Assembly: GCA_046704545.1 (NCBI GenBank)
Contig: JBJKRT010000009.1
Span: 42,456-106,455, forward strand
DNA length: 64,000 nt
Direction: 5' to 3'
From: Longimicrobiales bacterium
Lineage (GTDB): Bacteria > Gemmatimonadota > Gemmatimonadetes > Longimicrobiales > Gaopeijiaceae
The notes beneath the pieces were generated by a model. The model was not told the DNA's origin and did no database searches. It worked only from the letters and a program-made list of their open reading frames with translations. The first letter of the stretch is position 1, and each line of letters opens with the position of its first letter. The translations under genes were made by a program, and so were the position numbers. This document shows, piece by piece, positions 9,047 through 42,847 of this stretch.

Positions 9047-9070
9047 CTCGGGCGGGTGTGACGAGCTGAC

Positions 9071-9135
9071 GAGTGGCCCGCCTCCGCTCTCGGGCTGTCG
9101 CCACGGAGCTGCGGCGGGCCACTCGTGCCTTTTTT
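9071..9135 (+). terminator. Intrinsic terminator after the S46 peptidase gene
   Basis: 12-bp perfect stem GAGTGGCCCGCC (9071-9082) / GGCGGGCCACTC (9113-9124), followed by GTGCCTTTTTT. Confidence 0.7.
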
Positions 9136-9173
9136 CGTTGCGTCGCGTGCGGGCGTGAACATACGTTTTCGCC

Positions 9174-10049: not shown

Positions 10050-10071
10050 TCCGTCTCTCCATGTCGAGGCC

Positions 10072-10911: not shown

Positions 10912-11031
10912 GCTCGCGTCGAAAGGCAGCGCTTCAAGAGGGAATTTTCGGGGTTGACAAGGTCCCCGCTTTAGGTCACGCTCAAAGCAGCTAATTGAGG
11001 CCCTCCCTAGGCCTTAGCAAGCGGTGTCAGC

Positions 11032-12662
<1,631 letters not shown>

Positions 12663-12666
<4 letters not shown>

Positions 12667-14135: not shown

Positions 14136-14144
14136 GCCTTTCCC

Positions 14145-14169
14145 CGGTGTATGGCAACATAATACACCG
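14145..14169. promoter_or_regulatory. Inverted repeat CGGTGTAT-N9-ATACACCG, candidate enhancer-binding-protein site
   Basis: Read directly: GGTGTAT 14146-14152 and ATACACC 14162-14168. It lies about 220 bp upstream of the sigma-54 promoter. Confidence 0.35.
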
Positions 14170-14262
14170 TATACAGGGCACATACGCACGCCCTATCTCC
14201 TTGTCATTGTTGAAGTTACAGACCTCCACTCCGGGGTGGTCGTTCAGGCTCGCCCCGACACT

Positions 14263-27049: not shown

Positions 27050-27067
27050 TGGCGGGCGGCAGGAACG

Positions 27068-27961
27068 TCAGCTGCCACGCGCAGTATCCGACGACTCCGT
27101 GCCCATGTACGGCGCGATGCGCTCGTACACGGCCTCCGCGCTGATGCCCGCCGTCGATTGGATCACGCTGAAGCGGTGATCGCCCGCCCCCAGAAACGCG
27201 TCGTGGGCCGACCAGCCCTCCCAGGCGGAGGCCCCCCAGACGCTGGGGCCCAGCCATCCGCCGGGCTCGACGGCATGGTAAAGCTCTTCGAAGGAGCCTC
27301 GAGCCTCGACGAACGTGTGGTAGAGCGAGTACTCCGTCCACCCACGTCTGCGCAGGAGCTCCGAGCGCCACCCGGGACCGCGCGCGCCACGAGCCTGCGG
27401 CGGGCCTCCCGACTCCTCCAGGTAGTCGAGCAGGGCGCGGACGGACGCCGTGTGGAGCATGACGGGCGTCACTCCGTGATTCCACCTCGACCGGGGAAGT
27501 CCGAGGAGGGTGGCGGAGGTCTCGTACCAGCGCCGGTGGCCATCCTCGGCCATGCGTATGATCCGCGCACGCCCACCCGGGAAGAGCCAATCGGTCGTCG
27601 TCCGCTTGACCGCCAGTACGTCCGCGTCGAGCGTGAGGTAGTAGGGTGTGGAAACGCGCCGGCTCGCCTCCAGCTTGGCGATCTGCTGGACGTTGTGGCC
27701 GAACATCGCCCCCCACCTTCTCGCTCGGAGCCTCGCCCGAAGGCTTCGCGTCTCCGGTACGACGTCGGCATCCGTGAGCGCTCTGGGCGACCACTGCGCG
27801 AACACGTCGCAAGCGGTGTCAGCGGCCTCCGGCCGCGTGACGATCCAGATCCGGCCGATCCCCTCGACGAACCGGCGTAACGTCGACGCGAGAATGCGTG
27901 CGCGTCCCATGTCACGCGGGTGCAGCGGCAGAACGGCGTCGAAGGTCACAGGCTCGGCCAT
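27068..27961 (-). CDS. Hypothetical protein, nucleotide-diphospho-sugar-transferase-like (DxD motif)
   Basis: 297-aa ORF with good codon bias. YYLTLDADVLAV is a DxD-type motif. It lies immediately downstream of the Omp85 gene on the same strand. Confidence 0.6.
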   Translation of the reverse strand: MAEPVTFDAVLPLHPRDMGRARILASTLRRFVEGIGRIWIVTRPEAADTACDVFAQWSPRALTDADVVPETRSLRARLRARRWGAMFGHNVQQIAKLEASRRVSTPYYLTLDADVLAVKRTTTDWLFPGGRARIIRMAEDGHRRWYETSATLLGLPRSRWNHGVTPVMLHTASVRALLDYLEESGGPPQARGARGPGWRSELLRRRGWTEYSLYHTFVEARGSFEELYHAVEPGGWLGPSVWGASAWEGWSAHDAFLGAGDHRFSVIQSTAGISAEAVYERIAPYMGTESSDTARGS

Positions 27962-27972
27962 GGCCTTGCCGC

Positions 27973-29766
27973 TCAGAAGGTCCCGGGCCCGCGCTGGAAG
28001 CGGCGGCTTTGGTTCCAGCGCGGTGTTCGGATGCCGAAACGAAGCTGGTTCATCTCGAACGTGATCCGGAAGATCGGCCGACCGCCTCGTCCGAGCGGGA
28101 AGGAGATCTCGGGAATCCAGACGTTACGGGAGTTCGCCGGCTCGGCGATGCGGAGCCCGAACCCGGCACTCCCCAACCATCCGGAATTGACACCGAAAGG
28201 GACGTCTCCCGCCCACGTCCGTCCCGCGTCGATGAAGACCGTCGCACCCAACCCCAGGCCGCTCCAATCGGGCCACGGAAAGACGAAGCGATCCTCGGCG
28301 ATCAGGAGGAGGCGTTGTCCGCCGGGCACCGCGTCGTCGGGAAGTGAGCGTACCCCGTCGCGCCCCCCGAGGGTGAGCTGGAACGGAATGTTGGTCTTCC
28401 ATCCACCGCCCGCGGTCGCGGAAAAGAAGAACGTCTGCCACGGAAGCCACCCTCTTCCCCACCCGTACAGCGCCGTCTGCGCCAGGAGATCGTGCCAGCC
28501 TCCGTTGGCCCGACCACCCTCGGCGGACAGCATGAGTCCGGCGAGCGAGCGCCCGACCGGCGCCAGGAGCGTCGTGTAGAGGCGTCCGTACGTGTCATGG
28601 ACGTCGGGCACGTCGCTGGGCACGCCGATGCCCAGCGAGCGTCCGATGCTGACGCCCCCGAAGAAGCCGAGCTTGACGATGTCTCGTTCTTTCAGCGCGT
28701 CGATACCGGTGTAGTCGCGGTAACGGATGCGGCGCGCGCCGACGTGCAGGGCCAATCGGGTCGCGCCACGCGCTCCGGTCTGTGCGGCGAACGAAGGCGG
28801 CAGCGCGGCCTGCCCCGGCTGCGCCCCCCCGAAGTCGTTGTTCTGCACCAGCTCGGGCGAGCCATGGGGCTGCACGATATTGCGCTCCAGGCTCATCCCG
28901 AGGATCCAGGAGCGGGTGGGCTCGCCCAGGCGGATGGCTGCGGCGAGCTCCTCACGGTCGTGGAACATGGGCATGAGGACCTGCGTGAGCGATCCATTCC
29001 CCCCGGTCCCGTAGGAGTAGAACCCGGCGCCGCGGTCGACCAGCTCGGAGGCGGCGAAGCGACTCACGTCACCGACGAACCCGTGGTTGAATTGCTGGAA
29101 GAAGTAGGAGCCCGCCTTGGCCTTGCCCGCGCGGAGCTCCGCGTCGGTCGTACCGAAGAAACGGGGGGTGAAGATCCGGAAGCCGTTGTCCTGCCGCTCC
29201 CGCCAGGCATGATGGTCGACCTGCGCGGTGATGCCGTTCCCCAGGAAGTTTCCCTCCAGCAACTGGACGTGCTCCAGGTTCACGTGTCCCGCATCGTACG
29301 TGGCGTTCACGTCCACGACCGTCGACCAGCTGTCGCGAGTCTGGACGCGGATCGTCTTGACGCCCGGAGCCGTCTCGAACGTATCGATCCGGACCTGGTC
29401 GATGAAGTTGTACCGGTTCAGGATCCGCTGAGACTCCGCCACGAGAAAGGGATTGAAGCAATCGCCCTTGTGAATCAGCAACTCGCGGCGGATGAAGGAG
29501 CGGGTCGTCGTGACGTGAACGAAGTCGGCCGCAGCGAACGCCCACCGGAGGAAGAAGGGGTTGTGGCCGGACCTGGGAAAGACGTTGTGGTTCTCGATCT
29601 CGACATGGCCGACGACGCCGTTCGGGCAGCGCCTGCCTGCATCCGCCTGGGCCGCCAGACCGCGTGCACCCAGAAGCTGAACGACGGCCAGAACGATCCA
29701 TGTGGTCCGAGCCGCCGTGCGACGGCCACCGTGGAGGGCGAGCGGCGGGGATCCCCTCACGAGCAC
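27973..29766 (-). CDS. Omp85/BamA/TamA-family outer-membrane protein (POTRA plus surface-antigen barrel)
   Basis: GTG start and signal peptide (LLGARGLAAQA). POTRA-like segment (VVGHVEIENHNVF...RRELLIHKGDCFNPFLVAESQRILNRYNFIDQVRI). C-terminal barrel ending in Phe. Confidence 0.75.
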   Translation of the reverse strand: MLVRGSPPLALHGGRRTAARTTWIVLAVVQLLGARGLAAQADAGRRCPNGVVGHVEIENHNVFPRSGHNPFFLRWAFAAADFVHVTTTRSFIRRELLIHKGDCFNPFLVAESQRILNRYNFIDQVRIDTFETAPGVKTIRVQTRDSWSTVVDVNATYDAGHVNLEHVQLLEGNFLGNGITAQVDHHAWRERQDNGFRIFTPRFFGTTDAELRAGKAKAGSYFFQQFNHGFVGDVSRFAASELVDRGAGFYSYGTGGNGSLTQVLMPMFHDREELAAAIRLGEPTRSWILGMSLERNIVQPHGSPELVQNNDFGGAQPGQAALPPSFAAQTGARGATRLALHVGARRIRYRDYTGIDALKERDIVKLGFFGGVSIGRSLGIGVPSDVPDVHDTYGRLYTTLLAPVGRSLAGLMLSAEGGRANGGWHDLLAQTALYGWGRGWLPWQTFFFSATAGGGWKTNIPFQLTLGGRDGVRSLPDDAVPGGQRLLLIAEDRFVFPWPDWSGLGLGATVFIDAGRTWAGDVPFGVNSGWLGSAGFGLRIAEPANSRNVWIPEISFPLGRGGRPIFRITFEMNQLRFGIRTPRWNQSRRFQRGPGTF

Positions 29767-29817
29767 ATCTGGCGCGAGACGGCGAGGAGGCTGCTCTCGT
29801 TCCGGGCGCTGCAGAGA

Positions 29818-29834
29818 CCGATCATCATGATCGG
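29818..29834. promoter_or_regulatory. Perfect 17-bp palindrome CCGATCAT-C-ATGATCGG in a divergent promoter region
   Basis: Read directly. It lies between the Omp85 operon (minus) and the glycosyltransferase/ABC/Spt operon (plus). Confidence 0.4.
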
Positions 29835-30018
29835 CGTAGCAAAGCTGAGAAGTGGGCGTGCGGCTGCGTTCATCGAAGACTCTGGCGCGGTCGCGCCGGG
29901 CGGACCAACGGTGCTCTGCGGGGGTCGTCGCCTTATACTAGTCGGACCGCCTCGGAACGTCACGCCTGACCCGACCCGCCGTGCATGCGCTCTCTCCGCC
30001 ACCGTTGAAGATCCGTTC

Positions 30019-30885
30019 GTGAGCGATCTCGATCGAGGCTACCTGACCCTGGCCACGGGACCCCGCCAGTACCTGGAGCTGGCAGTGGACATGGCGCTGT
30101 CGCTCAAGGAGCACACCGAGCTTCCCGTGGCGCTCGTCGCGGACGAGGAAGCGGCTCGTGTGGCTCGGCAGGTGTACGGCGGCGTCTTCGACCGCGTCGT
30201 TCTTCTGCCGGAGCGATTCCGCCTGGGTCGCGCACGGAAATACGGTACGGCGGAGGCGAGTCCTTTCCGGGAAACGATCTTCCTGGATGCCGATGCGTTC
30301 GTGCTGGCGCCCCCCGACGGGCTCTTTCGCGTCCTCCGTGAGGCAACCGTGGTGATGGTGGGAGGGCGACTCGGTCCGGAGGAGGACCGGGATCACCACG
30401 GATTCTCCACTCGCGCACTCATGAAGACCTTCGAGCTCGACGCGTACCTGAAGACGAACTCGGGGCTCTTCGCCTTCCGGAACCCCGAAGCTCGCGCGTT
30501 CATGGAGGAGTGTCTCGAGACGTTCCGCGACGAGATCCGTCCGCGCGTCCGCTGGCACCGCTTTCGTGGAGCGTGGCTGGGCGACGAGATCGCCTTCGGC
30601 GTCGTGGGCGGCCGCCGGAACGTAGCGACCTTCCCTGAGCCGGGGCCGATGTTCTGGCCGAACGAGTTCGCCGACCTCGATCTCGAGCATCCGGATCGGC
30701 CCTTCCTCCACCTTCTGGGCCCCCTCCCGGATCCGATCTTTCAGTCACTGCTCGAGGCGGCCCGGGTCCGGCGAGCCCGAGCGGGACTCCCGAAGTCCAC
30801 CCTCGCCCACCTGCACCAGGAGATGGAGCGCTTCACGAGCGAAGGGACACTCATGCGCGCGGCCCGAACCCTCCGGCTCCGCTGA
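30019..30885 (+). CDS. Glycosyltransferase-like protein (GT-A fold, GT8-like, DxD)
   Basis: Only the C-terminal part of track ORF 28492..30885 is plausible; the rest is antisense to Omp85. First in-frame start is GTG 30019. The IFLDADAFVL DxD motif follows a YLTLATG N-terminus typical of GT8-like proteins. Confidence 0.6.
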   Translation: MSDLDRGYLTLATGPRQYLELAVDMALSLKEHTELPVALVADEEAARVARQVYGGVFDRVVLLPERFRLGRARKYGTAEASPFRETIFLDADAFVLAPPDGLFRVLREATVVMVGGRLGPEEDRDHHGFSTRALMKTFELDAYLKTNSGLFAFRNPEARAFMEECLETFRDEIRPRVRWHRFRGAWLGDEIAFGVVGGRRNVATFPEPGPMFWPNEFADLDLEHPDRPFLHLLGPLPDPIFQSLLEAARVRRARAGLPKSTLAHLHQEMERFTSEGTLMRAARTLRLR

Positions 30886-30908
30886 AGCGGGGCGCGATCC
30901 GTAACGCG

Positions 30909-32756
30909 ATGCTGCTTCCGCGAGGATTCCTCGACGCCGACATCCGTCGCGTCATCCGCCACTACGCTCGCGTGGTGGGGGCCCGGCCGAGGCACATCTT
31001 GATTCCGGTGGCCCTGGCATTCCTGGCGGCCGGCTTCGAGGGCGCCTCGTTCTCGCTCCTCATTCCCCTGAGTCGAGCGGTCTCGGGAAACAGCTTCGAC
31101 TTCCTGCACGGATCGAAGGTGTTCGGTTGGATCGCCCGGATCCTTCCGGCGTCGCTGGCCTCGTCTCCCCGACGCGATGCCTATCTCGTGCTCGCGATCC
31201 TGGGACTGGCGCTCGTGAGCCGTGTCGGCAAGGTGCTGTCCGAGCTCGGCCGGGCGGTCTACGCGAACTCGAGGAACGAGGCGTACTTCGCCGGCGTCCA
31301 GGAGGAGACCTTCGGCCGTATCCTGGGGTTCGGGCGTCTGTATTTCGAGCGCGAGTCGCTTGGACGCCTCGACGTGGAGCTGAGCTGGTCGAAATCGGTG
31401 GTCGACCTTCTGGACAGCGTCGAGGGGTTCCTCAAGCACGCCCTCAGCATGATCGCGAAGGTCGTGGTCATGGTCGCCCTGTCCATTCCGTTGTCGATCA
31501 CGGTCGCGATCGCCTTCCCGGGCATCCTCCTGGGCACGGGTCGCATCTCCAGAGCAATCGAGCGGCGTGCTCAGGAAGGGGCCGACCTGGAGATCCGCTC
31601 GAAGCGCCAGGTGCTGGATCTCCTCGCCACCGTACCGCTGGTGAAGGCCTTCAACCAGGAGCGGGAGGCGAGGGCCTCCTACCGAGCGATCCTCGGTGAC
31701 CTGAGAGGCGTGGGCGCCCGTCGGCGCAACCTGATGGCGCTCCGATGGCCCGTGGAAGAGATCTCCGTCCTGCTCACGATCATCCTGGCCCAGGCGGTCG
31801 TGATCCTCACCAGCGCGAGCTACCTTCCCGGAGACCTGGTCAAGCTCGCGGTCTTCCTCGTCCTGGTCCAGCAGACCATGCCGAACATGAAGTCGTTCGG
31901 GGCCCTCGCCAGCGCGCTGGCCGACCAGCGACCCAAGCTCAGGGCGCTCGCCCGCCTGCTCAGCGACACGGACAAATACAGGGTCGAGTCGGGCACACGC
32001 GTCTTCACGGGCCTGCGGCACGGCATCGAGGTCCGGAGCCTCTCCTTCGCCTATGCCGACGGTACAGCCGTCTTGAAGAACGTCACGGCGAAGATCCCTG
32101 CGGACTCGTTCACCGGGGTGGTAGGAGAGAGCGGATCGGGCAAAAGCACCCTCACGGACCTCATCGCCCGCTTCTACGACTGTCCTCCGGGAACGGTGCT
32201 GCTGGACGGCATCGACATCCGCGAGTTCTCGCTCTCCTCGCTCTATCGCCGCATGACCATCGTGAGCCAGGACGTCTGGCTCCTGAACCGTACGCTCCGA
32301 GGGAATCTCCTGTACGGTCTCCACGACCCACCGGACGACGACGCGCTCCTCGAGCTCCTCTCCGATCTGCAGCTCGGCCCGTTCCTGCGAGAGCATCCGA
32401 GCCCGCTCGACGTGGTCATCGGGGATCACGGCGTCCAGCTCTCCGGAGGACAACGCCAGCGCATCGCCATAGCGCGAGCCCTGCTCCGAAAGCCGGAGAT
32501 CCTGATCCTGGACGAGGCCACATCCGCGCTGGACAGCGTCGTCGAGAGGCGGGTTGCCGAGGAGATCGATCGCAGATTCCGGGGCAGAACGATGCTCGTG
32601 GTCGCCCATCGCCTTTCGACGCTGCGCGACGCCGACCAGATTCTCGTCCTCAAGCACGGGCGCATCGTCGAGGCCGGCGGCTGGGACGAGCTCTTGAGCG
32701 CCGGCGGAGAGTTCGCGGCGCTGCACGAGGCGCAGTTCGCGACCGAGACGGTCTGA
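30909..32756 (+). CDS. ABC exporter, fused permease/ATPase (MsbA-like)
   Basis: Six-TM N-terminal half. Walker A GESGSGKST, signature LSGGQRQR, Walker B ILILDEATSALD. Confidence 0.9.
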   Translation: MLLPRGFLDADIRRVIRHYARVVGARPRHILIPVALAFLAAGFEGASFSLLIPLSRAVSGNSFDFLHGSKVFGWIARILPASLASSPRRDAYLVLAILGLALVSRVGKVLSELGRAVYANSRNEAYFAGVQEETFGRILGFGRLYFERESLGRLDVELSWSKSVVDLLDSVEGFLKHALSMIAKVVVMVALSIPLSITVAIAFPGILLGTGRISRAIERRAQEGADLEIRSKRQVLDLLATVPLVKAFNQEREARASYRAILGDLRGVGARRRNLMALRWPVEEISVLLTIILAQAVVILTSASYLPGDLVKLAVFLVLVQQTMPNMKSFGALASALADQRPKLRALARLLSDTDKYRVESGTRVFTGLRHGIEVRSLSFAYADGTAVLKNVTAKIPADSFTGVVGESGSGKSTLTDLIARFYDCPPGTVLLDGIDIREFSLSSLYRRMTIVSQDVWLLNRTLRGNLLYGLHDPPDDDALLELLSDLQLGPFLREHPSPLDVVIGDHGVQLSGGQRQRIAIARALLRKPEILILDEATSALDSVVERRVAEEIDRRFRGRTMLVVAHRLSTLRDADQILVLKHGRIVEAGGWDELLSAGGEFAALHEAQFATETV

Positions 32757-32782
32757 GAGATGCGACGGAGCGGGAGGCGAGC

Positions 32783-33982
32783 GTGAGCGGGGACGTATGG
32801 AGCAAGGTCCGCGAATACCGCGTAGCAGAAGAAGCCCGCGAGCGCGGTCTGTATCCCTACTTCCGCACCTTCGAGAAGAACGACGGCCCCGAAGCCGTCG
32901 TCGATGGGCGCCGCGTGGTCATGTTCGGGTCCAACAACTACCTGGGCCTGACGACGCATCCGAAGGTCCGCGAGGCCGCCCGAGACGCCGTCCGCGATCT
33001 CGGGACGAGCATGACGGGCTCTCGCCTCGTGAACGGGACCATGCGACTCCACTACGACCTGGAGGAGAGGCTGGCCGATTTCTACGGGCGCGAATCGGCC
33101 CTGGTCTTCACGACCGGCTACCAGGTCAATCTGGCCGTTTGCTCCGCCCTGCTCGGCCCGGGTGACGTCGCACTGATCGACCGGGGCGTACACGCCTCGA
33201 TCTACGACGGCGTACGGCTCGCGATGGCCAACGGCGCGCGAATGGAGCGCTTCGGCCACAACTCCGCCGAATCCCTGGAGCGCCACCTGTCCAGGCTGCA
33301 AGACGCCGAGAGCGCGCTCGTCCTCGTCGATGGGGTGTTCAGCGCCGACGGTGAGGTCGCCAGGCTGGATGAGCTCGTGCCGGCAGCGCGCGCGCACGGA
33401 GCCCGCACGATGATCGACGACGCCCACGGCCTCGGCGTGATCGGCCCGGAAGGCCGGGGCACGGCCCACCACTTCGGGCTCGAGTCGGATGTGGACCTGA
33501 TCGGCGGGACGTTCAGCAAGGCGCTCGCGAGCGTGGGCGGCTTCGTCGTGGGGGATTCGGCGGTGCTCGACTTCGTCCGACACCACGCGCCGTCGTTCCT
33601 GTTCGCTGCGAGCGGGGCTCCGTCCTCCGTGGCCGCGGCGATGGCCGCCCTGGAGGTCATGCGGGAGGAGCGCTGGCGCATCGACCGGCTCCGGGAGAAC
33701 TACGAGTACATGATCCGGGAGCTGAAGGGACTGGGCTTCGAGATCGGCCCGACGAGCACCGCGGTCGTGCCCATCCACGTCGGCGACGACAATCGCACCC
33801 TCGCCGTCTGGCAGGACCTCTTCGAGGAGCACGCGATCTACACGAACCCGTTCGTCTCCCATAGCGTCGCTCCCGGAAGCGCCCTGATCCGGACGAGTTA
33901 CATGGCGACGCACGAGCGTACACACCTCGACCGCGGCCTCGCGGCCTTCGAGGCCGTGGGCAGGAAGCATGGCTTGATCTGA
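32783..33982 (+). CDS. Alpha-oxoamine synthase, serine-palmitoyltransferase-like
   Basis: Real part of track ORF 31745..33982. GTG 32783 follows the RBS GGGAGG. Motifs FGSNNYLGL and DDAHG. The PLP-lysine motif GGTFSKALASVGGFVVG resembles bacterial Spt (GTFSKS.G..GGFV) more than BioF or Kbl. Confidence 0.75.
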   Translation: MSGDVWSKVREYRVAEEARERGLYPYFRTFEKNDGPEAVVDGRRVVMFGSNNYLGLTTHPKVREAARDAVRDLGTSMTGSRLVNGTMRLHYDLEERLADFYGRESALVFTTGYQVNLAVCSALLGPGDVALIDRGVHASIYDGVRLAMANGARMERFGHNSAESLERHLSRLQDAESALVLVDGVFSADGEVARLDELVPAARAHGARTMIDDAHGLGVIGPEGRGTAHHFGLESDVDLIGGTFSKALASVGGFVVGDSAVLDFVRHHAPSFLFAASGAPSSVAAAMAALEVMREERWRIDRLRENYEYMIRELKGLGFEIGPTSTAVVPIHVGDDNRTLAVWQDLFEEHAIYTNPFVSHSVAPGSALIRTSYMATHERTHLDRGLAAFEAVGRKHGLI

Positions 33983-34974
33983 TGAACGGCCCCGTGCTGC
34001 TGACCGGAGGCTCCGGCTTCCTCGGGTCCCACATCGCCGACCTCCTGTCCTCTGGCGGTGTGGAGGTGCGCGCGCTCGTGCGGACCACCAGCGACGTGCG
34101 GCACCTCTCGTCGCTCGCCGGCGTGGATCTCGTACACGGAAGCCTCGGAGACCCGGCCTCGCTCGTGGAGGCGGCCCGCGGTGTGCGCGGGATCATTCAC
34201 GCGGCGGGCCTCGTCAAGGCGAGGCGCCCGGACGACTTCGAGCGCGTGAACACCGAGGGGACCCAGCGTCTCCTGGACGCCGCCCGGACTGCGGCTCCGG
34301 ACCTGGAGCGGTTCGTGCACGTGTCGTCGCTCGCGGCCCTCGGACCGAGCGCCGACGGACGGCCTCGGCCTCAGGATGCGCCCCCCGCACCGCTCACGGC
34401 CTACGGACGCAGCAAGCTCGCAGCCGAGCGGCTGGTGCGGGATGCCTCGGCACGGATCCGGACGGTCGTGGTCCGCCCGCCTGTGATCCACGGACCGCGC
34501 GATCGAGAGACGCTCGCGTTCTACCGGGCCGTCAAGCTGGGTGTCCTTCCCCTCACCGGATCGCCCGATTCGGTGCTGAGCATGGTGTACGCGACCGACT
34601 GCGCGAACGCGTGTGTACGGGCGCTCGACGCCGACGTCGCGAGCGGGTCGGCGTTCGACGTGGAGGACGGAGTCCCGGAGACGCTGGCGACGCTCATCGG
34701 ACACATCGAAGCCGCGCTGGGCACCCGGGCGCGCGTCCGCATCCCGATCCCGGGCGTCGTGCTGTACGCCGCCGCTTTGGCTACGGAAGCGTTCGGGCGT
34801 ATCTCCGGACGCACCGTGATGCTCACGAGGGACAAGGCGCGTGAGCTGCGTGCCCCGCATTGGGTCTGCGACGGTGCGGATGCTCGCCGGACGCTCCGGT
34901 GGACGCCCGAGGTAACGTTCGCCGAAGGAGCACATCGAGCGGCCGAGTGGTACCGCGAGGCCGGCTGGCTGTGA
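33982..34974 (+). CDS. NAD(P)-dependent epimerase/dehydratase-family SDR (candidate ketosphingoid/ceramide reductase)
   Basis: Rossmann motif LLTGGSGFLGSH and catalytic YGRSK (YxxxK). The ATG overlaps the upstream TGA by 1 nt. Confidence 0.8.
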   Translation: MNGPVLLTGGSGFLGSHIADLLSSGGVEVRALVRTTSDVRHLSSLAGVDLVHGSLGDPASLVEAARGVRGIIHAAGLVKARRPDDFERVNTEGTQRLLDAARTAAPDLERFVHVSSLAALGPSADGRPRPQDAPPAPLTAYGRSKLAAERLVRDASARIRTVVVRPPVIHGPRDRETLAFYRAVKLGVLPLTGSPDSVLSMVYATDCANACVRALDADVASGSAFDVEDGVPETLATLIGHIEAALGTRARVRIPIPGVVLYAAALATEAFGRISGRTVMLTRDKARELRAPHWVCDGADARRTLRWTPEVTFAEGAHRAAEWYREAGWL

Positions 34975-35081
34975 GCGCCGATGGGCCGCCTTTCCCGGAC
35001 CGAGGGGATGACGCGACGTTTCGACGGGCCCACATTACACCGGGTTATCGACGTCCACGCCACTGCGCTCCGAGGTTGGCT

Positions 35082-35321
35082 TTGACCCCCTACGAGTTTC
35101 TATCTCACCTCCTCGTCACCGAGTTCGGCGTGCAGGAAGACAGGATCGTCCCCGGGTCCACCCTCACCTCCCTCGGTCTCGACTCGCTGTCGGCGGCGGA
35201 GCTCGTCCGGGAGATCGAGAGGGAGTTCGGAATCGTCCTCTCCGACGAGCAAGCGAGCTTCGAAACGCTCGGCGATGCGGCGGCCATCATCGACGATCTC
35301 GTCCGAGCCGACCAGGCCTGA
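35082..35321 (+). CDS. Acyl carrier protein
   Basis: C-terminal 79 codons of track ORF 34860..35321. TTG 35082 (or 35076) follows GAGG. Phosphopantetheine site LGLDSLSAAELV, with Ser at about residue 35 as in ACPs. Confidence 0.7.
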   Translation: MTPYEFLSHLLVTEFGVQEDRIVPGSTLTSLGLDSLSAAELVREIEREFGIVLSDEQASFETLGDAAAIIDDLVRADQA

Positions 35322-35329
35322 GACGCGAG

Positions 35330-36562
35330 ATGCCGCGAAGGGTTTTCATCAGCGGGATGGGGCTCGTCTCCCCTCTCGGCAACGAGGTCGAGACGGCGTT
35401 CGAGAAGCTCTACTCGGGCGCGTCGGCGGTCCGCCGGGTCGATTCGGGATCGGGCATGGCCGGAGGCGACGCCATCGTCGCCCCGGCGGAGTTCGAGACC
35501 GACCCCACCATCCCTCGCGTCAAGTCCCGGCTGATGGCGCGTGCCGCGAAGATGGCGGTGCTCGCGACCGGCTCCGCCCTGTCGTCGTCGGGTCTCGAGC
35601 CGGGTGGGCCCTGGGGAAGCGCGGCCGGCATCTACGTGGGCTCGGGCCTGGGCGGATCGGAGGCCCTCGAGGACCACTATCGGGCGTACTTCGCCACGCC
35701 GCCACGCCGTTCGAGGCCCGCGACCACCCCCATGATCATGGCCAGCGGGCCGGCATCCCACATGAGCATGCACTTCGGCCTGACGGGACCGTCGCTCACG
35801 TACTCCGTGGCGTGCGTGTCCTCGGCCGTCGCCATCGGGGAGGCGTTCCGCGCGATCCGCGACGGGTATCTGGAAACCGCGATCGCGGGCGGTGCCGAGG
35901 CCCAGCTGAACGAAGGCACTGTCGCGGCATGGATGGCATTGGGCGCGCTGGCGAAGGAGCATGCCGAAGGCCCTGCCGCATCCAGCAGACCGTTCGACGC
36001 GGAGCGGACCGGTCTCGTGCTCGGGGAGGGCGCCGCGATCCTGGTACTCGAAAGCGAAGAAGCGTTGGCCGCCCGCGGCGGCGAGGCCCTCGCCGAAGTG
36101 GTCGGCTACGGGATGTCGTGCGACGCCCAGAGCCTCACCGAGCCCGACGAGCGCGGACAGGTCCTGGCCATGCGACGGGCCCTGGCCGACGCGAGGGTCG
36201 CACCCGGTGAGATCGGGTACGTGAATGCGCATGCCACGGGCACACCGACCGGGGACAGGGTGGAGTGGACGGCGATCTCGACGGTATTCGGCGAGCGTGC
36301 CGGCCGGGTCCCCGTCAGCTCGTCCAAGGGTGCCCACGGACACCTCGTCGGAGCGACGAGCGCGCTGGAGACGATCTGGACCGTCCTGGCCCTGAGAACG
36401 GGACGTATTCCGCCCACCGCCAACCTCACCCACCCCGATCCCGACTGTCCCCTCGACTGTGTTCCGCAGGTGGGACGAGAGGTCGAAGGGCTCCGGTATG
36501 CGCTGTCGAACTCGTTCGCCTTCGGAGGGACGAACGGAGCGCTGGTCGTGGCGAAGACCTGA
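35330..36562 (+). CDS. Beta-ketoacyl-ACP synthase (KAS I/II type)
   Basis: VFISGMGLVSPLG. Active-site Cys in SVACVSSAVAIG, and His residues in NAHATGTP and GAHGHLVGA. Confidence 0.85.
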   Translation: MPRRVFISGMGLVSPLGNEVETAFEKLYSGASAVRRVDSGSGMAGGDAIVAPAEFETDPTIPRVKSRLMARAAKMAVLATGSALSSSGLEPGGPWGSAAGIYVGSGLGGSEALEDHYRAYFATPPRRSRPATTPMIMASGPASHMSMHFGLTGPSLTYSVACVSSAVAIGEAFRAIRDGYLETAIAGGAEAQLNEGTVAAWMALGALAKEHAEGPAASSRPFDAERTGLVLGEGAAILVLESEEALAARGGEALAEVVGYGMSCDAQSLTEPDERGQVLAMRRALADARVAPGEIGYVNAHATGTPTGDRVEWTAISTVFGERAGRVPVSSSKGAHGHLVGATSALETIWTVLALRTGRIPPTANLTHPDPDCPLDCVPQVGREVEGLRYALSNSFAFGGTNGALVVAKT

Positions 36563-36607
36563 CGACCCGAAGGTCCGGAGCACCTCGGAGCGAAGGCGCC
36601 GTGAACT

Positions 36608-37732
36608 TCAGATCCGCTTCTGGAAGACACGCCAGACCCGGTAGGCTTCTCCGCCCAGGCTCTCCAGGGTAGCGTTGAGGTCGTGGTTGTCCTCCAGGAC
36701 CCACGAGGCCTCGACGTCGCGCACGCCGAAATCGGCGGCCTGGCGGAAGGCCTCCTCGAGAAGCAGGGACAGCCCCCCCATCCTCCGGAACCGCGGCAGC
36801 ACACCCGCCAGCATGATCCGAAACCACGGCGCACGTCGCCGCGCCCGCAACAGCCGGAGCCAGTTGAACGGAAGGAGCCGGCCGCTCCGGTCGGCGGCCA
36901 TCGCCCTTCCGTACTCGGGCAGGAAGAGGCCGAAAGCGACCATCTCGCCCTCGGAGTACACGGCCAACGACCCTTCGGGGACCATGAGCGGCTTGAGCTC
37001 GTGGGCAATGAAGAGCCACTCCTCGAACGAGAGCGGCACGAAGCCCCACTGCTCCCTCCAGCATTCGCCGTAGACCTGCCAGCATCCGTGCATGACGCTG
37101 TCGAAGTCCCGGAAGTCGATCGGACCGACGGTGAGGTCGAGCTTGCCGCGGATCCGCTCTCCCAATCGGCTCAGACGCGGCACCAGACGGGTCTCCAGGC
37201 TGTCGAGGGCTACGTGCCAGGCCAGAAGATCGGCGCCCTTTTCGTATCCGGCACCGGTGAACAGATCCGCGTAGTACGGAGGATTCCACGGAGTCATGAA
37301 CGTCTGAGGATGCTCGAATCCCTCGACGAGAATGCCTCCCTCGTAGTTCGTGGACGGACTCACGGGTCCCGTGACGAGCGCGCTTCCGCGCTCCTCGAGC
37401 CATGCCTCGGCGGCCGCGAGCAGGGCCGTCGCCACATTCTGGTCATCTACCGACTCGAAGAAGCCGACGAAACCCGGGTCGTTTCCCTCGTCCGCGGCCC
37501 GACGATTCAGGATGGCGGCCACGCGGCCGACCGGGCGACCCGCCTCCTCCGCCAGGAACAGGCCCCGTTCCGCGTCGCGGAAGAGCGGGTTCGCCTTCGG
37601 ATCCAGGATCGACCGGACGCTCATGCGAAGCGGCGGAATCCAGGCGGGGTAGGCACTCTTGTCCAGGATGGCCCACGGTGCGGCGACGAATCGCCGCAGG
37701 CCGGACCTTCCGGAAAGCTCCTGGATCTTCAC
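36608..37732 (-). CDS. Two-lobed GNAT-superfamily N-acyltransferase (candidate bacterial ceramide synthase)
   Basis: 374-aa ORF convergent with the KAS gene. N-terminus (FVAAPWAILDKSAYPAWIPPL...GRPVGRVAAI) and C-terminus (RFRRMGGLSLLL...ASWVLEDN) match the GNAT-like family as I recall it. The functional call is inference from context. Confidence 0.6.
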   Translation of the reverse strand: MKIQELSGRSGLRRFVAAPWAILDKSAYPAWIPPLRMSVRSILDPKANPLFRDAERGLFLAEEAGRPVGRVAAILNRRAADEGNDPGFVGFFESVDDQNVATALLAAAEAWLEERGSALVTGPVSPSTNYEGGILVEGFEHPQTFMTPWNPPYYADLFTGAGYEKGADLLAWHVALDSLETRLVPRLSRLGERIRGKLDLTVGPIDFRDFDSVMHGCWQVYGECWREQWGFVPLSFEEWLFIAHELKPLMVPEGSLAVYSEGEMVAFGLFLPEYGRAMAADRSGRLLPFNWLRLLRARRRAPWFRIMLAGVLPRFRRMGGLSLLLEEAFRQAADFGVRDVEASWVLEDNHDLNATLESLGGEAYRVWRVFQKRI

Positions 37733-37771
37733 TGGGCAGGATGGGGCAAGAATCGTCCTCCGTGTTCCGCG

Positions 37772-38914
37772 TCAGCGACTTCCTCGTCGAGCCGCTTCTT
37801 CCACGGCGCCGACAATGATCTCCGGCCCGCGGGACACCCAACGCCGAAACGATTCGACGCGCTCCGGAGAGGGTACGGGAGGCGAGGCCCAGAACGCGTC
37901 CAGGTCGCGAAAAGACCCCGTCGTTGCGAGGCCTGCCCGCCGAACATCAGCGGCATTGAACGCCTGTTCGTAGTGATCGTCCACCGGCACCGCCAGAATG
38001 GGCTTTCCGAGCTGGAACGCTTCGCAGAGCGACTCGAACCCTGCGGTTCCGACATACGCCCGGCAACCCGCAAGGTGGTCGAGGAACGCCGTGTCGTCCA
38101 GTTCGTGCACACGGAAACCGACCTGTTCGGGTAGGTCCTGCCCCTCCCCGCCACCAGGCACGTAGCAGTGTACCGCAACGTCGGGATGGCGCGCCTGCCA
38201 TGCCGCAACCTCCCGTGCGTACCCGGCGTTGAGCGCATACGCCAACAGGTAATCTCCGTCGGTGGCGGCACGCAGAGCCGTATCCGGCCTCAGGAGCGGA
38301 GGAGCGACCCGGACGGCCCCGACATCGGGCAGCTCGTCGAACGAGAGACCGAGCACGGTATCCGCTCCGGACGTCGAGATCCTGGACAGCAGCGTGAGAC
38401 CCAGGCGGCCGGATCCGCCCGGGGGCGGGTCGGCCGCTCCCGGATGATCCATCAGGTACGTATGAGCCACGGCCACACGGGGCGTGCGTACGGACGGCAA
38501 GCTCAGGAGGTCGACGAAGCCGGCAATCAGGTCGAAGAAATTCACGACGACATCGGGGCGGTACTCGCGGAGGCCGCGCCGCATCGCGAGAGCGGAGGAC
38601 ACGTACTTCGCCAGGCGGCGGGTGTTGTACGCCGCAGTCCGGAGCACGCTCATTCCCCGGGACTGCCGGTCGGGCACCAGAGTGGGCGCCGGAAAGGTGT
38701 GGAGCGGGGCGTCCAGGCCGCGGGCGAAGTACTCCGGGGCCGGGTGCACGGAGCTGACCCCGAGGTACACCGCGACGACTTCGTGCCCGGCATCTGCCAG
38801 AAAGCGGCGGACGGCGAGCGCCTGGGTCATGTGGCCTCGCCCTTCGCCCTGCACTGCGAAAGCCACGCGGAGGGTGCGGTTCCTCAACCGAGCGGATTCA
38901 TGGAAGATCGGCAT
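37772..38914 (-). CDS. Glycosyltransferase, GT-B fold (GT28/MGT-like)
   Basis: Track ORF trimmed to ATG 38914 (MPIFHESARL...). LRVAFAVQGEGRGHMTQALAV is the G.G.GH N-terminal motif of MurG/MGT-type transferases. Confidence 0.7.
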   Translation of the reverse strand: MPIFHESARLRNRTLRVAFAVQGEGRGHMTQALAVRRFLADAGHEVVAVYLGVSSVHPAPEYFARGLDAPLHTFPAPTLVPDRQSRGMSVLRTAAYNTRRLAKYVSSALAMRRGLREYRPDVVVNFFDLIAGFVDLLSLPSVRTPRVAVAHTYLMDHPGAADPPPGGSGRLGLTLLSRISTSGADTVLGLSFDELPDVGAVRVAPPLLRPDTALRAATDGDYLLAYALNAGYAREVAAWQARHPDVAVHCYVPGGGEGQDLPEQVGFRVHELDDTAFLDHLAGCRAYVGTAGFESLCEAFQLGKPILAVPVDDHYEQAFNAADVRRAGLATTGSFRDLDAFWASPPVPSPERVESFRRWVSRGPEIIVGAVEEAARRGSR

Positions 38915-39115
38915 CCCTGGCTCTGGGTGCGACAAGCCTGGCGCCCCAACTTGTATGCCGTTCCAGGGGCTGTCCAGCGGACCGCCACCGTCGGTGCTCG
39001 CGGCCGGCACCGCCCCCGGCGCGCCGGCGACAAGCCGGATCGACTTGCCCGCACGGCATGAAAACGGGTACCATCTTTCGTTTGCTGGACGACTTTCCCT
39101 GCCTCTCCGGCCCGC

Positions 39116-40594
39116 ATGTCTCTCCTCATCACCACGCTCTACGTGCTCGCCGCCCTGCTGGGCGCGTCGTTTGCCGTTGCGGAGTTGCGTCTCCTGGTGC
39201 GGTTCCTACGCAATCGGGAGTCCGTTCGAGCGTCGGTACGGTCTCACATGAGACGGGTCGCGGTAGCGGGCGGCGACGACACGCTGCCGCCCACGGTCAC
39301 CATCCAGCTTCCGCTCTACAACGAGCGACTGACGGCCCGCCAGGTGATCCTCGCGGCGGCGGCCCAGAGCTACCCGCCGGATCGCTTCGACATTCAGGTG
39401 CTGGACGACTCGACCGACGAGACGACGGCGGTGGTCGAGCAGGCGGTGCGCGAGGTGAGGGAAAAAGGCATCCGGATCGAGCATATCCATCGTTCCGTGC
39501 GAACCGGATACAAGGCCGGCGCGCTCGCCGCCGGGCTGGAGCGTTCCGAAGCGGAGTTCGTGGCGGTCTTCGACGCCGACTTCACGCCCCCGCCGGACTT
39601 CCTCCGACGCGGGCTGGTGGAGGAGGACGCGTTCCAGGATCCGACGGTCGCCTTCGTTCAGACCCGATGGACGTGGCACTCCGTGGGCGGCCTCTTTCAC
39701 GCGGCCCTCGCGCTTCTCCTCGACCGCCACTTCTACGTCCAGAAGCCCGCACGCGCGTTCGCGCGCCAGGTGACGACCTTCAACGGCTCCGGCGGCATCT
39801 GGCGGCGAGACGCGATCGACGCAGCGGGCGGATGGTCCGCCGACACGCTCACGGAGGATCTCGACCTGAGCTTCCGTTGCGCGCTGGCGGGTTGGCACGG
39901 GCGATACGTGCACGACATCGGCGTGCCCAACGAGCTGCCCGCGAACATGCGGTCGTTCAAGCTCCAGCAGCTCCGGTGGGCGCGCGGCAACGCCCAGTGC
40001 TTCCGCAAGCTGCGAAGCCGGGTCATGGATTCGAACAATCGGCTCCGGGACCGCTGGGAAGAGGTATTCCTCCTGGCCGGCTACGGCATCCACCCGGTTC
40101 TTCTGGTCAACCTGGCACTCTGGCCGTGGGCGGTCCTGTACGTCGATCGGACGTTCTTCTGGGTCATGCAGGCCGTCATGTCGCTCGCCACGCTCGTCGC
40201 CCCGATCAGCTTCCTGATCACGCTTCGCGAACGCGGCGACCGATGGAGCCTGGATTTGATCGGTCAGATCCTCGCCGGCATGTGCATCGGCATCGGCCTC
40301 ATGGTCAACAACACCGCGGGCCAACTCCAGGGCTTCCTGCCGGGCAGCGGTGAGTTCGCGCGGACCCCGAAGGGCCGGCCGTCGGGCGGCGGCACGGCCG
40401 CTCAGGCGGCGCGTCCGTACTTCAGCCCACTGCATTGGACCTTCTTCGCAGAGGTCGCCGTCCTCGCTTATTGCCTTCTCACGAGCGCGCTTCTCATGAC
40501 CCACGGTGCCGCCGTGTGGGCGCTCCCTCTCCTGTTCTGGGGGATGTGCATCGGGCTCGTGGCACGGCTACAGCTCCTGCCCCAACCCGTCTGA
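39116..40594 (+). CDS. Membrane glycosyltransferase family 2 (D,D,D,QxxRW type)
   Basis: LDDSTDET, FDADF, TEDLDLS and QQLRWARG motifs. N- and C-terminal TM segments. Confidence 0.85.
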   Translation: MSLLITTLYVLAALLGASFAVAELRLLVRFLRNRESVRASVRSHMRRVAVAGGDDTLPPTVTIQLPLYNERLTARQVILAAAAQSYPPDRFDIQVLDDSTDETTAVVEQAVREVREKGIRIEHIHRSVRTGYKAGALAAGLERSEAEFVAVFDADFTPPPDFLRRGLVEEDAFQDPTVAFVQTRWTWHSVGGLFHAALALLLDRHFYVQKPARAFARQVTTFNGSGGIWRRDAIDAAGGWSADTLTEDLDLSFRCALAGWHGRYVHDIGVPNELPANMRSFKLQQLRWARGNAQCFRKLRSRVMDSNNRLRDRWEEVFLLAGYGIHPVLLVNLALWPWAVLYVDRTFFWVMQAVMSLATLVAPISFLITLRERGDRWSLDLIGQILAGMCIGIGLMVNNTAGQLQGFLPGSGEFARTPKGRPSGGGTAAQAARPYFSPLHWTFFAEVAVLAYCLLTSALLMTHGAAVWALPLLFWGMCIGLVARLQLLPQPV

Positions 40595-40619
40595 GCGGCG
40601 AGCCGCGAGGCACCGGAGC

Positions 40620-42629
40620 TCAGGCTCCCTTCCCTTCCAGGGTCAGCACCTCGAACGGCTCCAGCCGAAAGACGTGCGGCGCACCGGCCTCGAGCCGCAC
40701 GGGTCCACCCGCGCCCCCACCGTCCTTCCACGGGGATGCGAGGCTCCACGACCTTGGCGCCCCCTCGGGAAGCTCGAGCGCACGCTCGACGTCCACCTCC
40801 ATCGATTGCGGCCGGTCGCTCGGATTCCTCAGCACGAGGATGCCCTTGGCCGGTGACCACGACGCCCACCCGTACGGCTCGAGCTCCAGCGGATCGCCGC
40901 CGATCCAGTGCGTGTCGACGAGCGTCGACGCATTTCGCCGAGACCAGCGCGCGGCTTCGGCGAGGTCGTCCCAGTTCTCGTCGCTCAGCAGCGAGGGCGT
41001 GATGTACATCTCCTGGAGCTGAGTCCCGGTTCCGAAGTAGTCACGGATCTCGCTGCGGAAGTCGTGGCCCGGATCGCTGTTCAGCCCGTTGGCGTACTTC
41101 GCGTAGATGAGGCCGTGCAGCATCAGTGAGTTCAGCGGATAGAGCGGCCCCTTCGCGACGATGCCGCGGTGGGTGTCGCCGTCGCGGTACGTGATCCACT
41201 GCTGGCGCTTGGTGCCCACGCCCGCGAACGAGTGGTCGTCCCCGCCACGCCAGATCGAGTCACAGTGCTTGAGCCAGAACGGCGACGGATACGTGCCCGT
41301 CGTGAGGTTCACGTACAGGTCGGGCTCGATGCGGCGCAGGTCCCCGATCAGCGAGATCATCGCGTCGAAGTCGCTGTCGAACCTGCTGCCCGGCACGACG
41401 CTCGAGGCGTTGCCCGTGCCGTCGAACTTGAACTGGTTCACCCCGTACTTCTCGATGAACCGGACGCACGTGTCGTGGAAGAGCTTGTAGTACTTCGGAC
41501 CCGACAGGGCGAACCCGCCGGAGTTCATCTCCAGTCCGTGCGCCTTGCCGTACGCGAGCCGCTCCTGGCGAGGCTTCCCGTAGCCGCCCCACGGCGACAG
41601 CCACACGCCCGGCTCGGCGCCGTAGCGCTCGGCCGCCTTGCGCACGTTGGTGAACCCGTCGGGAAAGCCCGAGTCGAAATGCCAGAGCGTCTTCGGGTCG
41701 TCCCATCCGTCGTCGAAGAGGTACGAGTCGAGCGTCACGTCGCGCTTCTCGTGCAACTCCTGACCGAACGCCCGGATGGCCGCGAGGGCCCCCGCTTCGC
41801 CGTAGCGATTGAAGTAGCCGAGGTCGTACCACGAGTTGTAATGCAGGAACGTCCGGTACGGGTGAGCGCGCTCGCGCTCCACGTACTCCAGGAAGCCCCG
41901 ACGAAGCTGCCCCGCCGGCGTGCTGCCCACCACCGACGACACGGTGAACGTCGTGCCCGGGCGCAACGGGAGGTCTCGTGGAAGCACGGCTCGGGCACGC
42001 GCTCCCTCGAGCGAGGCGTGGGACAGGGGATGCTCGAATCCCAGGTAGACGTCCCCCGACACGATCGGCGAGCCCCGCACCGTCCCGAACACCGCGGCGT
42101 TCGAAAGGTCGACATCGACGAGCACGATGCGCTTCACCGGGACCTGGCTCCTGGTAGGCCGCAGCGTGATCTCCTGCCTCAGGTACTTCGACCCCTGCCG
42201 GCCCACGGCGCTCCACTCCGCGCGTAGTCCCGTCGCCGGATCCTCCAGCTCGACCACGACCCGGGAGCCCGGCACCCGATCCACGAAGCGGGAAGCGTGC
42301 TCGTCGACCGCGAGCTTCTCCGTGCGCGGCCCCCCGAGGATGCGCATCGCCGAAGCGCGCAGCGCGCTCCCGTCCGCCAGCTCGAGCACGAACGCTTCCT
42401 TCGGCGCCGGAATCGAACGGCGGTTCAGCGTGTCGTGCAGCGCCACCGGGCGGAACGAGCCACCCTCGGTCGTCCAGGTGCCCGCGATACCGTCCGTCGT
42501 GAGCGAGACCTCGCCGCCCGAAAGGTGAACACGCGCCAGGCCCGGGAAGACGCCCAGGCCCACGGAAAGCACGGCCGCACGCTCCATGAAGTCACGGCGC
42601 GTGATGGGAGGTCTGTCATGCGAAGTCAT
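40620..42629 (-). CDS. Tat-exported putative glycoside hydrolase (alpha-galactosidase/GH36-like TIM barrel)
   Basis: Track ORF trimmed to ATG 42629. Twin-arginine motif TRRDFMERAA. The YNSWYDLGY...YLFDDGWDD region is reminiscent of clan-D alpha-galactosidases. Family call is tentative. Confidence 0.5.
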   Translation of the reverse strand: MTSHDRPPITRRDFMERAAVLSVGLGVFPGLARVHLSGGEVSLTTDGIAGTWTTEGGSFRPVALHDTLNRRSIPAPKEAFVLELADGSALRASAMRILGGPRTEKLAVDEHASRFVDRVPGSRVVVELEDPATGLRAEWSAVGRQGSKYLRQEITLRPTRSQVPVKRIVLVDVDLSNAAVFGTVRGSPIVSGDVYLGFEHPLSHASLEGARARAVLPRDLPLRPGTTFTVSSVVGSTPAGQLRRGFLEYVERERAHPYRTFLHYNSWYDLGYFNRYGEAGALAAIRAFGQELHEKRDVTLDSYLFDDGWDDPKTLWHFDSGFPDGFTNVRKAAERYGAEPGVWLSPWGGYGKPRQERLAYGKAHGLEMNSGGFALSGPKYYKLFHDTCVRFIEKYGVNQFKFDGTGNASSVVPGSRFDSDFDAMISLIGDLRRIEPDLYVNLTTGTYPSPFWLKHCDSIWRGGDDHSFAGVGTKRQQWITYRDGDTHRGIVAKGPLYPLNSLMLHGLIYAKYANGLNSDPGHDFRSEIRDYFGTGTQLQEMYITPSLLSDENWDDLAEAARWSRRNASTLVDTHWIGGDPLELEPYGWASWSPAKGILVLRNPSDRPQSMEVDVERALELPEGAPRSWSLASPWKDGGGAGGPVRLEAGAPHVFRLEPFEVLTLEGKGA

Positions 42630-42847
42630 GCGGGCCCTCTGGTCTTCTGGATCGGGATCGGCGCGGATCGATTCCACGCCCGGACTGTCCTTGTACCCAC
42701 GCCATCGGGTGATGGTCGCGGAGGAAACGGAGCTCGAAGCCCTCGTGCGAAGAGGAAGAGACCGTGGCGGTCAGAGTACCCTCCGGAGCGAGGACGAGCC
42801 AGTGGCGAGCGGGAGGGGCTCCACGGCCGAAGCTACCCGTGCGCCTC

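Follow-up and report, generated by a model that had tools for sequence, protein, structure and literature searches.

A gene cluster that very probably encodes the core of a bacterial ceramide pathway lies in a 64,000-nucleotide stretch of DNA from a Longimicrobiales bacterium (phylum Gemmatimonadota), the whole of which is referred to below as the window. Its three enzymes are a serine palmitoyltransferase (Spt)-like alpha-oxoamine synthase (AOS), a bacterial ceramide synthase (bCerS) and a ceramide reductase (CerR). Taken as a whole, the locus is probably best explained as this three-enzyme pathway set within a glycolipid cluster, with a private acyl carrier protein (ACP) and beta-ketoacyl-ACP synthase (KAS) feeding Spt. 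The core pathway is ordinary; the novelty lies in the ACP-KAS wiring, in the dual modules found in relatives, and in a prediction that extends across the phylum.

Bacterial sphingolipids were long considered rare, and the enzymes that make them have been defined only recently, bCerS and CerR reportedly by Stankeviciute et al. in 2022. To our knowledge, the delivery of acyl substrates to bacterial sphingolipid enzymes is known only for Rhodobacteria, through AcpR and AasR. The locus described here would represent an alternative acyl supply by a discrete ACP-KAS pair, in relatives with one pair for each acyl chain, and, if this is true, would explain how chain length can be set independently of bulk fatty-acid synthesis.

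Organization of the gene cluster

The window (67% GC) derives from contig C9 of a 4.1-Mb metagenome-assembled genome (MAG; G000) that is 85.7% complete, and public homologues of its proteins carry the names Longimicrobiales, Gemmatimonadales, Gemmatimonadaceae or Gemmatimonadota. Four of the five central genes are on the forward strand: the AOS (32783-33982, 399 residues, including GTFSKALASVGGFV), a CerR-like extended short-chain dehydrogenase/reductase (SDR) and putative 3-keto reductase (33982-34974, 330 residues, PF01370 and PF01073), a dedicated ACP (ACP-A; 35082-35321, 79 residues, PF00550), and a dedicated FabF-like KAS (KAS-A; 35330-36562, 410 residues). The fifth, on the reverse strand, encodes a tandem-GNAT N-acyltransferase of the bCerS family (36608-37732, 374 residues), in which PF00583 matches the C-terminal half only. 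The ATG of the SDR shares one base with the AOS stop codon. ACP-A starts at a TTG preceded by a GAGG ribosome-binding site, KAS-A starts 8 nt past the ACP stop, and 45 bp separate the end of the KAS gene from the convergent bCerS gene, which is ~2.6 kb from Spt.

GC content at third codon positions (0.84-0.86 in the coding frames of the five genes) shows the bias expected of real genes in a 67% GC genome. In an independent assembly (L041), the whole cluster is syntenic, with gene order kept and proteins 79-87% identical. All five genes proposed in the initial annotation, and the overlap of the SDR with the AOS gene, are thus borne out by open reading frames, Pfam and NCBIfam matches, codon-position bias and synteny. 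A scan of 29700-40700 for promoters and terminators gave no signal above shuffled expectation.

The alpha-oxoamine synthase

A phylogeny, set beforehand as the check on the Spt-like identity first proposed for the AOS, groups it with Spt and apart from BioF, Kbl and HemA. The tree comprises 59 sequences (IQ-TREE; references labelled by curated hidden Markov model (HMM) cut-offs or by E. coli annotation, CqsA not included). A Spt clade of exactly 35 rows has support of 93 (ultrafast bootstrap) and 90 (SH-aLRT), and contains the window protein, that of L041, the cluster-linked Gemmatimonadota AOS, 14 Pseudomonadota Spt (four of them scoring above the Spt-AlphaP cut-off) and the sequences of loci L001 and L045. 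Outside this clade are E. coli Kbl and BioF, one equivalog-level Kbl and five equivalog-level HemA. The placement was obtained again, with support of 94, when sequences were added.

Structural homologs point the same way. The best PDB match is Sphingobacterium multivorum Spt (363 bits), ahead by ~100 bits of S. paucimobilis Spt and a BioF/Kbl enzyme (~260 bits each); Kbl (220), cysteate-C-fatty acyltransferase (Cfat, 218), and BioF and ALAS (195 or less) follow. The motifs HASI, DDAH, GTFSK and LIRTS, which supply the His, Asp-x-x-His, pyridoxal phosphate-binding Lys and Arg, align with those of S. multivorum Spt (PDB entry 8guh). On this evidence the AOS belongs to the Spt clade, and it is predicted to use serine.

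The NCBIfam scores give a less decided picture. The best models are Spt-CFB (445.5 bits) and Spt-BetaP (378.5 bits), followed by the BioF/Kbl family (355), BioF (339), Kbl (329), Spt-AlphaP (291) and HemA (236). All of these matches fall below curated cut-offs, the Spt equivalogs having been built for other phyla. Weighing against the assignment, the AOS lies under all three Spt equivalog cut-offs (445.5 against 640 for CFB, 378.5 against 500 for BetaP, 291 against 670 for AlphaP), so that the amino-acid substrate is not settled by sequence. These shortfalls, together with the long stem (0.74-0.78 substitutions per site) on which the AOS group sits within the Spt clade, would also suit an enzyme that condenses alanine, glycine or cysteate instead of serine. 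The lipid made could then be a 1-deoxy-sphingoid, could resemble sulfonolipids or could be an amino lipid of another kind; environmental bacteria are rich in 1-deoxy and sulfono ceramides (PMC11334938). We nevertheless consider such an enzyme quite improbable, given that the residues at the S. multivorum Spt catalytic motifs are kept and that the partner enzymes are a canonical bCerS and CerR. Cysteate in particular is disfavored by the match to cysteate acyltransferase, at 218 bits against 363 for Spt, and no cysteate synthase-like gene turned up in family scans of the cluster genes; on both grounds, membership of the sulfonolipid CapB/Cfat group was rejected.

Two further AOS of the source genome (contigs C60 and C94) were set aside, being outside the 35-row clade on long branches and BioF/Kbl-like by HMM score. 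Genome contigs searched with the AOS gave only remote AOS homologues (31-45% identity), and none of these was from a named Gemmatimonadota.

The tandem GNAT and the reductase

An AlphaFold2 model of the GNAT (pLDDT 82, pTM 0.83) has as its best structural matches, over the whole length, the tandem-repeat GNATs 7q3a, 5kf1, 2wpw, MshD and FemX; the initial description of a convergent, "two-lobed" GNAT on the opposite strand is therefore correct. NCBIfam holds no model that matches the protein. Its assignment was instead approached with a bCerS-family profile built from 20 Gemmatimonadota homologues and run on 401 evenly sampled Pseudomonadota genomes. Full-length matches were found in 31 genomes (E 1e-45 to 1e-103), one of which (the unpublished G538) was left out of the trees. 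Searching the same 401 genomes with the Spt-AlphaP model identified 25 at E<=1e-120, all 25 among those 31, and each of the 14 genomes above the Spt-AlphaP cut-off also carries a bCerS-family GNAT. Spt and GNAT genes are 1-13 kb apart in several Pseudomonadota genomes. At one such locus (L061), an AMP-binding enzyme, SDR, ACP and Spt are followed by the GNAT ~9 kb downstream, an order that mirrors the published Caulobacter layout aasR-cerR-acpR-spt...cerS (PMC11324152).

Because members of the family are strictly associated with bona fide Spt in the Pseudomonadota, the window GNAT is assigned as a predicted bCerS, by way of this Spt-accompanying family and not by way of the named Caulobacter protein; the kinship with ceramide synthases suggested at the outset is upheld in the same way. 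One proteobacterial member of the family is named "dATP pyrophosphohydrolase" at NCBI, and the literature on that name gave nothing relevant to bCerS.

With the SDR that directly adjoins Spt in Pseudomonadota loci L061-L065 and L075, the window SDR shares Pfam families and 29-36% identity (E 1e-17 to 1e-37); its identity to the SDR of Spt-GNAT-SDR units in eight fetched Gemmatimonadota loci is 33-41%. As a homologue of the reductase that neighbors Spt in loci of the Caulobacter type, it is the predicted CerR.

A second bCerS-like GNAT, 34% identical to the first, is encoded on contig C4 of the source genome (L040:8074-9195, reverse strand), adjoining a PAP2_3 family protein and a FAD-linked oxidase. 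The PAP2_3 family presumably takes in sphingomyelin and inositol phosphorylceramide (IPC) synthase-type enzymes, and a further system for lipid acylation or head groups may be encoded here.

The private ACP-KAS pair

KAS-A scores 388.6 bits on the fabF equivalog (TIGR03150), below the cut-off of 493.75. The housekeeping cluster of the source genome, plsX-fabH-fabD-fabG-acpP-fabF, is located on contig C65, and its FabF (608 bits) is above the cut-off; its acpP is distinct from ACP-A. As the fab cluster is separate, the window pair is not housekeeping, and the "dedicated ACP" of the initial annotation stands. ACP-A is 82% identical to a 79-residue ACP in L041. The KAS motifs ACVSS, NAHATGT and SSSKGAHGH align with those of FabF, retaining the catalytic Cys, two His and Lys. 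In a KAS tree, two sister clades, both split from FabF with support of 100, keep this Cys-His-His-Lys set in all members. The KAS-A clade holds the KAS genes that come after the SDR (window, L041, L101 and L102). The KAS-B clade holds those that adjoin the GNAT in relatives and includes a copy on contig C69 of the source genome, where a second, orphan ACP-KAS pair is found (L105:3866-5326, reverse strand; KAS 53% identical to that of the window). This pair is apart from the ceramide cluster and neighbors a 1096-residue F510_1955-like glycosylhydrolase gene and a nicotinate phosphoribosyltransferase gene.

Among contigs with near homologues of the GNAT or the KAS, a same-strand Spt-SDR-ACP-KAS arrangement is kept in L041, L101, L102, L109 and the P0167 contig, down to ~60% KAS identity; on the P0167 contig, the order runs on as ACP-KAS-ACP-KAS. 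L101 and L102 have a second ACP-KAS pair upstream of the GNAT and in its orientation; in L102, this pair overlaps the GNAT gene. In L103, an ACP follows the SDR, and an ACP-KAS pair is found at another place in the cluster. The Spt of ACP/KAS-linked loci form a subclade of their own (support 100) on a long stem, apart from a "plain" Gemmatimonadota Spt clade. Among 150 species representatives, a KAS of the window type is found at E<=1e-120 only in the source genome and in G113; named metagenomic KAS homologues at 60-72% identity are from Gemmatimonadota MAGs.

It is likely that the ACP-KAS pair belongs to the ceramide system. That the two genes are mere neighboring fatty-acid paralogues with no sphingolipid role would fit most Gemmatimonadota Spt-bCerS-CerR triads, which do without an ACP-KAS pair, yet it is highly improbable in view of the same-strand order in five contigs at KAS identities down to ~60%, the tight spacing (8 nt between ACP and KAS), KAS clades distinct from FabF, and a complete housekeeping fab cluster elsewhere. 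Comparative evidence supports the initial annotation in placing a KAS where an acyl-ACP synthetase would be: the KAS is an extra paralogue, distinct from housekeeping FabF and syntenic with Spt, CerR and ACP. No AMP-binding gene turned up among the scanned cluster genes, and the source genome offers no better match to the AasR-like protein of L061 than one at 26% identity (contig C6). From this arrangement we infer that the KAS would load or extend the acyl donor on the private ACP for Spt.

The same core could instead be served differently, the window pair supplying the amide-linked chain for bCerS, perhaps beta-oxo, beta-hydroxy or unusually long, and not the long-chain-base precursor for Spt. 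The 45 bp between the KAS gene and the convergent bCerS gene would fit this role, as would the same-strand ACP-KAS pairs upstream of bCerS in L101 and L102, and the related pair beside a bCerS-like GNAT in G113, where no Spt is nearby. However, the KAS that adjoins bCerS is of a different clade, KAS-B, with its own member in the source genome on C69, whereas KAS-A genes always stand behind Spt-CerR-ACP on the same strand (L041, L101 and L102). In addition, the ACP/KAS-linked Spt form a distinct subclade, suggesting co-adaptation with the carrier. N-acyl supply by the window pair is on balance unlikely, and delivery to Spt is preferred.

Several observations weigh against delivery of the Spt substrate by this pair. 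An AasR could have been missed, since the MAG is 85.7% complete. There is no dedicated ketoreductase, dehydratase or enoyl reductase beside the KAS, so that housekeeping enzymes would have to accept ACP-A for an elongation cycle on it to be completed. L103 has an ACP but lacks a KAS after the SDR, and most Gemmatimonadota triads have no ACP-KAS match nearby; the KAS is thus dispensable for the core chemistry. Relatives of the window KAS also adjoin an LpxL-like enzyme and, in G113, a GNAT2-DegT pair, which argues that the KAS-ACP module is a general acyl-supply unit and not specific to Spt.

It is tempting to extend the preferred reading to two private type II "mini-synthase" modules that replace AasR in a lineage of Gemmatimonadota, one (ACP-A/KAS-A) with the co-evolved Spt subclade and the other (ACP-B/KAS-B) with bCerS; we put this forward tentatively, as a possibility somewhat short of even. 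If it is true, both ceramide chains would come from the housekeeping pool by condensation and be delivered on separate carriers, allowing independent control of long-chain-base and N-acyl length. The products would be unusual, probably extra-long, outer-membrane glycosphingolipids in a phylum not known for sphingolipids.

Two related pairs were seen in other settings. In G113, a 2.0-Mb genome of the same family as the window's, an ACP-KAS pair (L108, contig C20, ~8300-14200; its KAS shares 56% identity with that of the window) and a bCerS-like GNAT are divergently oriented. After the GNAT come a DegT-type aminotransferase and a Wzi-like barrel, and there is no Spt in the vicinity; such a locus could make an N-acylated amino sugar or another amino lipid. 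On the P0238 contig (ENA ERZ27256612, a Burkholderiales MAG), the pair (KAS 58% identical) is divergent from an LpxL-like lipid A acyltransferase, with squalene-hopene cyclase genes close by, and resembles the rhizobial AcpXL system.

Distribution in Gemmatimonadota

Gemmatimonadota are widespread in soils and the sea, and few members of the phylum are in culture. An adjacent Spt-GNAT pair, with the GNAT directly downstream on the same strand, is present in 85 of the 150 sampled Gemmatimonadota species genomes (AOS at E<=1e-89, and at E<=1e-98 in 84 of the 85); the count takes in the unpublished G057 and G097, and is 83 without both. The gap between the Spt and GNAT matches is 15-231 bp (median 33). 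In all eight of the fetched Gemmatimonadota loci, CerR adjoins the Spt-bCerS pair, in G106 in the order SDR-Spt-bCerS. More than half of the sampled species are thereby predicted to be able to make ceramide. Of the sampled genomes with the plain triad, G127, G058, G082 and G142 are each assembled as one contig and may come from isolates. In the window's own family, a genus represented by seven mostly complete genomes lacks both Spt and GNAT among those searched.

No literature linking Gemmatimonadota to sphingolipids was found, though large surveys, of which the accessible portions were covered, may already list the phylum. According to a Black Sea survey, 38 phyla have Spt-like genes; its accessible text and two supplementary files never name Gemmatimonadota. 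The initial annotation had held that sphingolipids are undescribed in this kind of organism. Nothing contradicting this was found, but the core genes are widely shared among Gemmatimonadota and not special to this genome. Nor were lipid data found for this organism or any Gemmatimonadota, which also tells against the ceramide assignment.

Three further loci were recorded. In L045 (GCA_963679965.1, 1-13756), a GNAT-Spt pair is accompanied by a convergent FabF-like KAS of a different clade and surrounded by three sulfotransferases, a Stealth protein, and GT64 and Gly_transf_sug genes, surroundings that hint at sphingolipids, sulfated or phospho-glycosylated, in a further lineage of the phylum. 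In L032 (contig C9 of G077, 8338-9468), an AOS on a very long branch is found within a 1649-residue open frame, with an SDR ~4 kb upstream and a bCerS-like GNAT (41% identity) ~4 kb downstream; the frame could represent a fusion, or could just be one of the long frames that stay open where GC content is high. Finally, a 1.0-Mb MAG labelled Acholeplasmataceae (G153) has, at L001 and L046, a Spt with 45% identity to that of the window and, where a contig ends, an incomplete gene of the bCerS family. This Spt is unexpected for the wall-less Acholeplasmataceae, and may reflect a binning error or gene transfer.

Flanking genes

Directly upstream of Spt lies an MsbA/HepA-like ABC exporter and candidate lipid flippase (30909-32756, forward strand, 615 residues, PF00005 and PF00664). 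Its NCBIfam matches to HepA (363 bits) and MsbA (311 bits) are both under the cut-offs. The exporter is kept upstream of Spt in L041, and an ABC exporter is also found within the L103 cluster. It is preceded by a GT-A-like protein of no confident family (30019-30885, forward strand, 288 residues; weak Mannosyl_trans3 match, DADAF motif), the position of which is taken in L041 by a 287-residue gene; it is probable that this gene opens an ABC-Spt operon.

Two glycosyltransferases follow the core on its other side. A GT-B enzyme (Glyco_trans_1_3, MJ1255-like; 37772-39010, reverse strand, start codon uncertain) adjoins the GNAT here and in L041, L101 and L103. A membrane GT2 protein (39116-40594, forward strand, 492 residues) matches the ceramide glucosyltransferase family GT21 (PF13506, E 1.7e-11) as well as PF13632 and PF13641; its CelA, PgaC and HpnI-like matches are all under cut-off, and the gene is kept in L041 and L103. 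Because an MsbA-like exporter and two glycosyltransferases flank the core, the predicted product of the locus is most likely a glycosylated ceramide.

Farther out, a 685-residue protein (40620-42677, reverse strand) has no Pfam or NCBIfam match. On the upstream side are envelope genes: a Wzi-like barrel, a conserved neighbor (25403-27049, forward strand), a DUF6492 protein (27068-27961, reverse strand), and an Omp85/POTRA-like protein (27973-29766, reverse strand, 597 residues), the last two syntenic in L041. Synteny suggests that the envelope neighbors (25403-29766) may be part of the ceramide system. The cluster thereby offers a candidate flippase and candidate outer-membrane components for the question of how sphingolipids are exported.

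Proposed pathway

Family membership of Spt, bCerS and CerR, the separateness of the ACP and KAS from the housekeeping set, and their synteny are shown by the comparisons above; in the route that follows, the substrates, the step order, the part played by the KAS and the glycosylation of the product are proposals. KAS-A would draw an acyl primer from the housekeeping pool and condense it with malonyl-ACP-A, and housekeeping FabG, FabZ and FabI would complete the cycle to give a chain-extended acyl-ACP-A. Spt would then join serine and acyl-ACP-A to form 3-ketosphinganine, to which bCerS would add an amide-linked acyl chain, probably from ACP-B of the C69 pair. Reduction of the 3-keto group by CerR would come after bCerS, an order taken from the Caulobacter model (PMC11087976). 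Sugars would be attached by the GT-B and GT2/GT21 enzymes, and the MsbA/HepA-like ABC protein would move the product, by flipping or export, in the direction of the outer membrane.

Comparison with known systems

The window shares with the Caulobacter/Rhodobacteria-type pathway the three core enzyme families, a dedicated ACP beside Spt and CerR, and glycosyltransferases and an export gene nearby. In Caulobacter-type loci, AasR loads the private ACP from free fatty acid (PMC11324152, PMC9386255, PMC11087976), whereas in the window a FabF-like KAS follows the ACP and no AasR was found. Gene order differs as well, spt-cerR-acp-kas in contrast to aasR-cerR-acpR-spt, and bCerS is convergent and adjacent instead of ~9 kb away. 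The host also differs, being a member of Gemmatimonadota.

Within that phylum, the plain triads are related to the window enzymes at 43-49% (Spt), 33-42% (bCerS) and 33-41% (CerR) identity. However, they consist of three genes side by side on one strand, lacking any match to the ACP or KAS, and their Spt are separate from the ACP/KAS-linked subclade to which the window Spt belongs.

In NodF/NodE, and in rhizobial AcpXL with FabF1XL/FabF2XL, a private ACP and a FabF-like KAS II supply a special acyl chain to one acyltransferase. By description, not by sequence, NodFE and AcpXL/FabF2XL are functional analogues of the window pair. In contrast to these systems, the consumers of the window pair would be Spt and probably bCerS, and no dedicated dehydratase or reductase accompanies it.

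A ketosynthase-based route to sphingoid bases has been described for SgaAB of Pseudomonas fluorescens MYb115, in which long-chain sphinganine synthesis depends on a polyketide synthase (PMC12134224). SgaA is a monomodular type I polyketide synthase, whereas the ketosynthase and ACP of the window are discrete type II proteins, and the window differs further in having a canonical bCerS and CerR. As in SgaAB, chain building by a ketosynthase would feed an alpha-oxoamine synthase in the window, and SgaAB is the nearest precedent for an acyl donor built on a carrier instead of being activated from free fatty acid.

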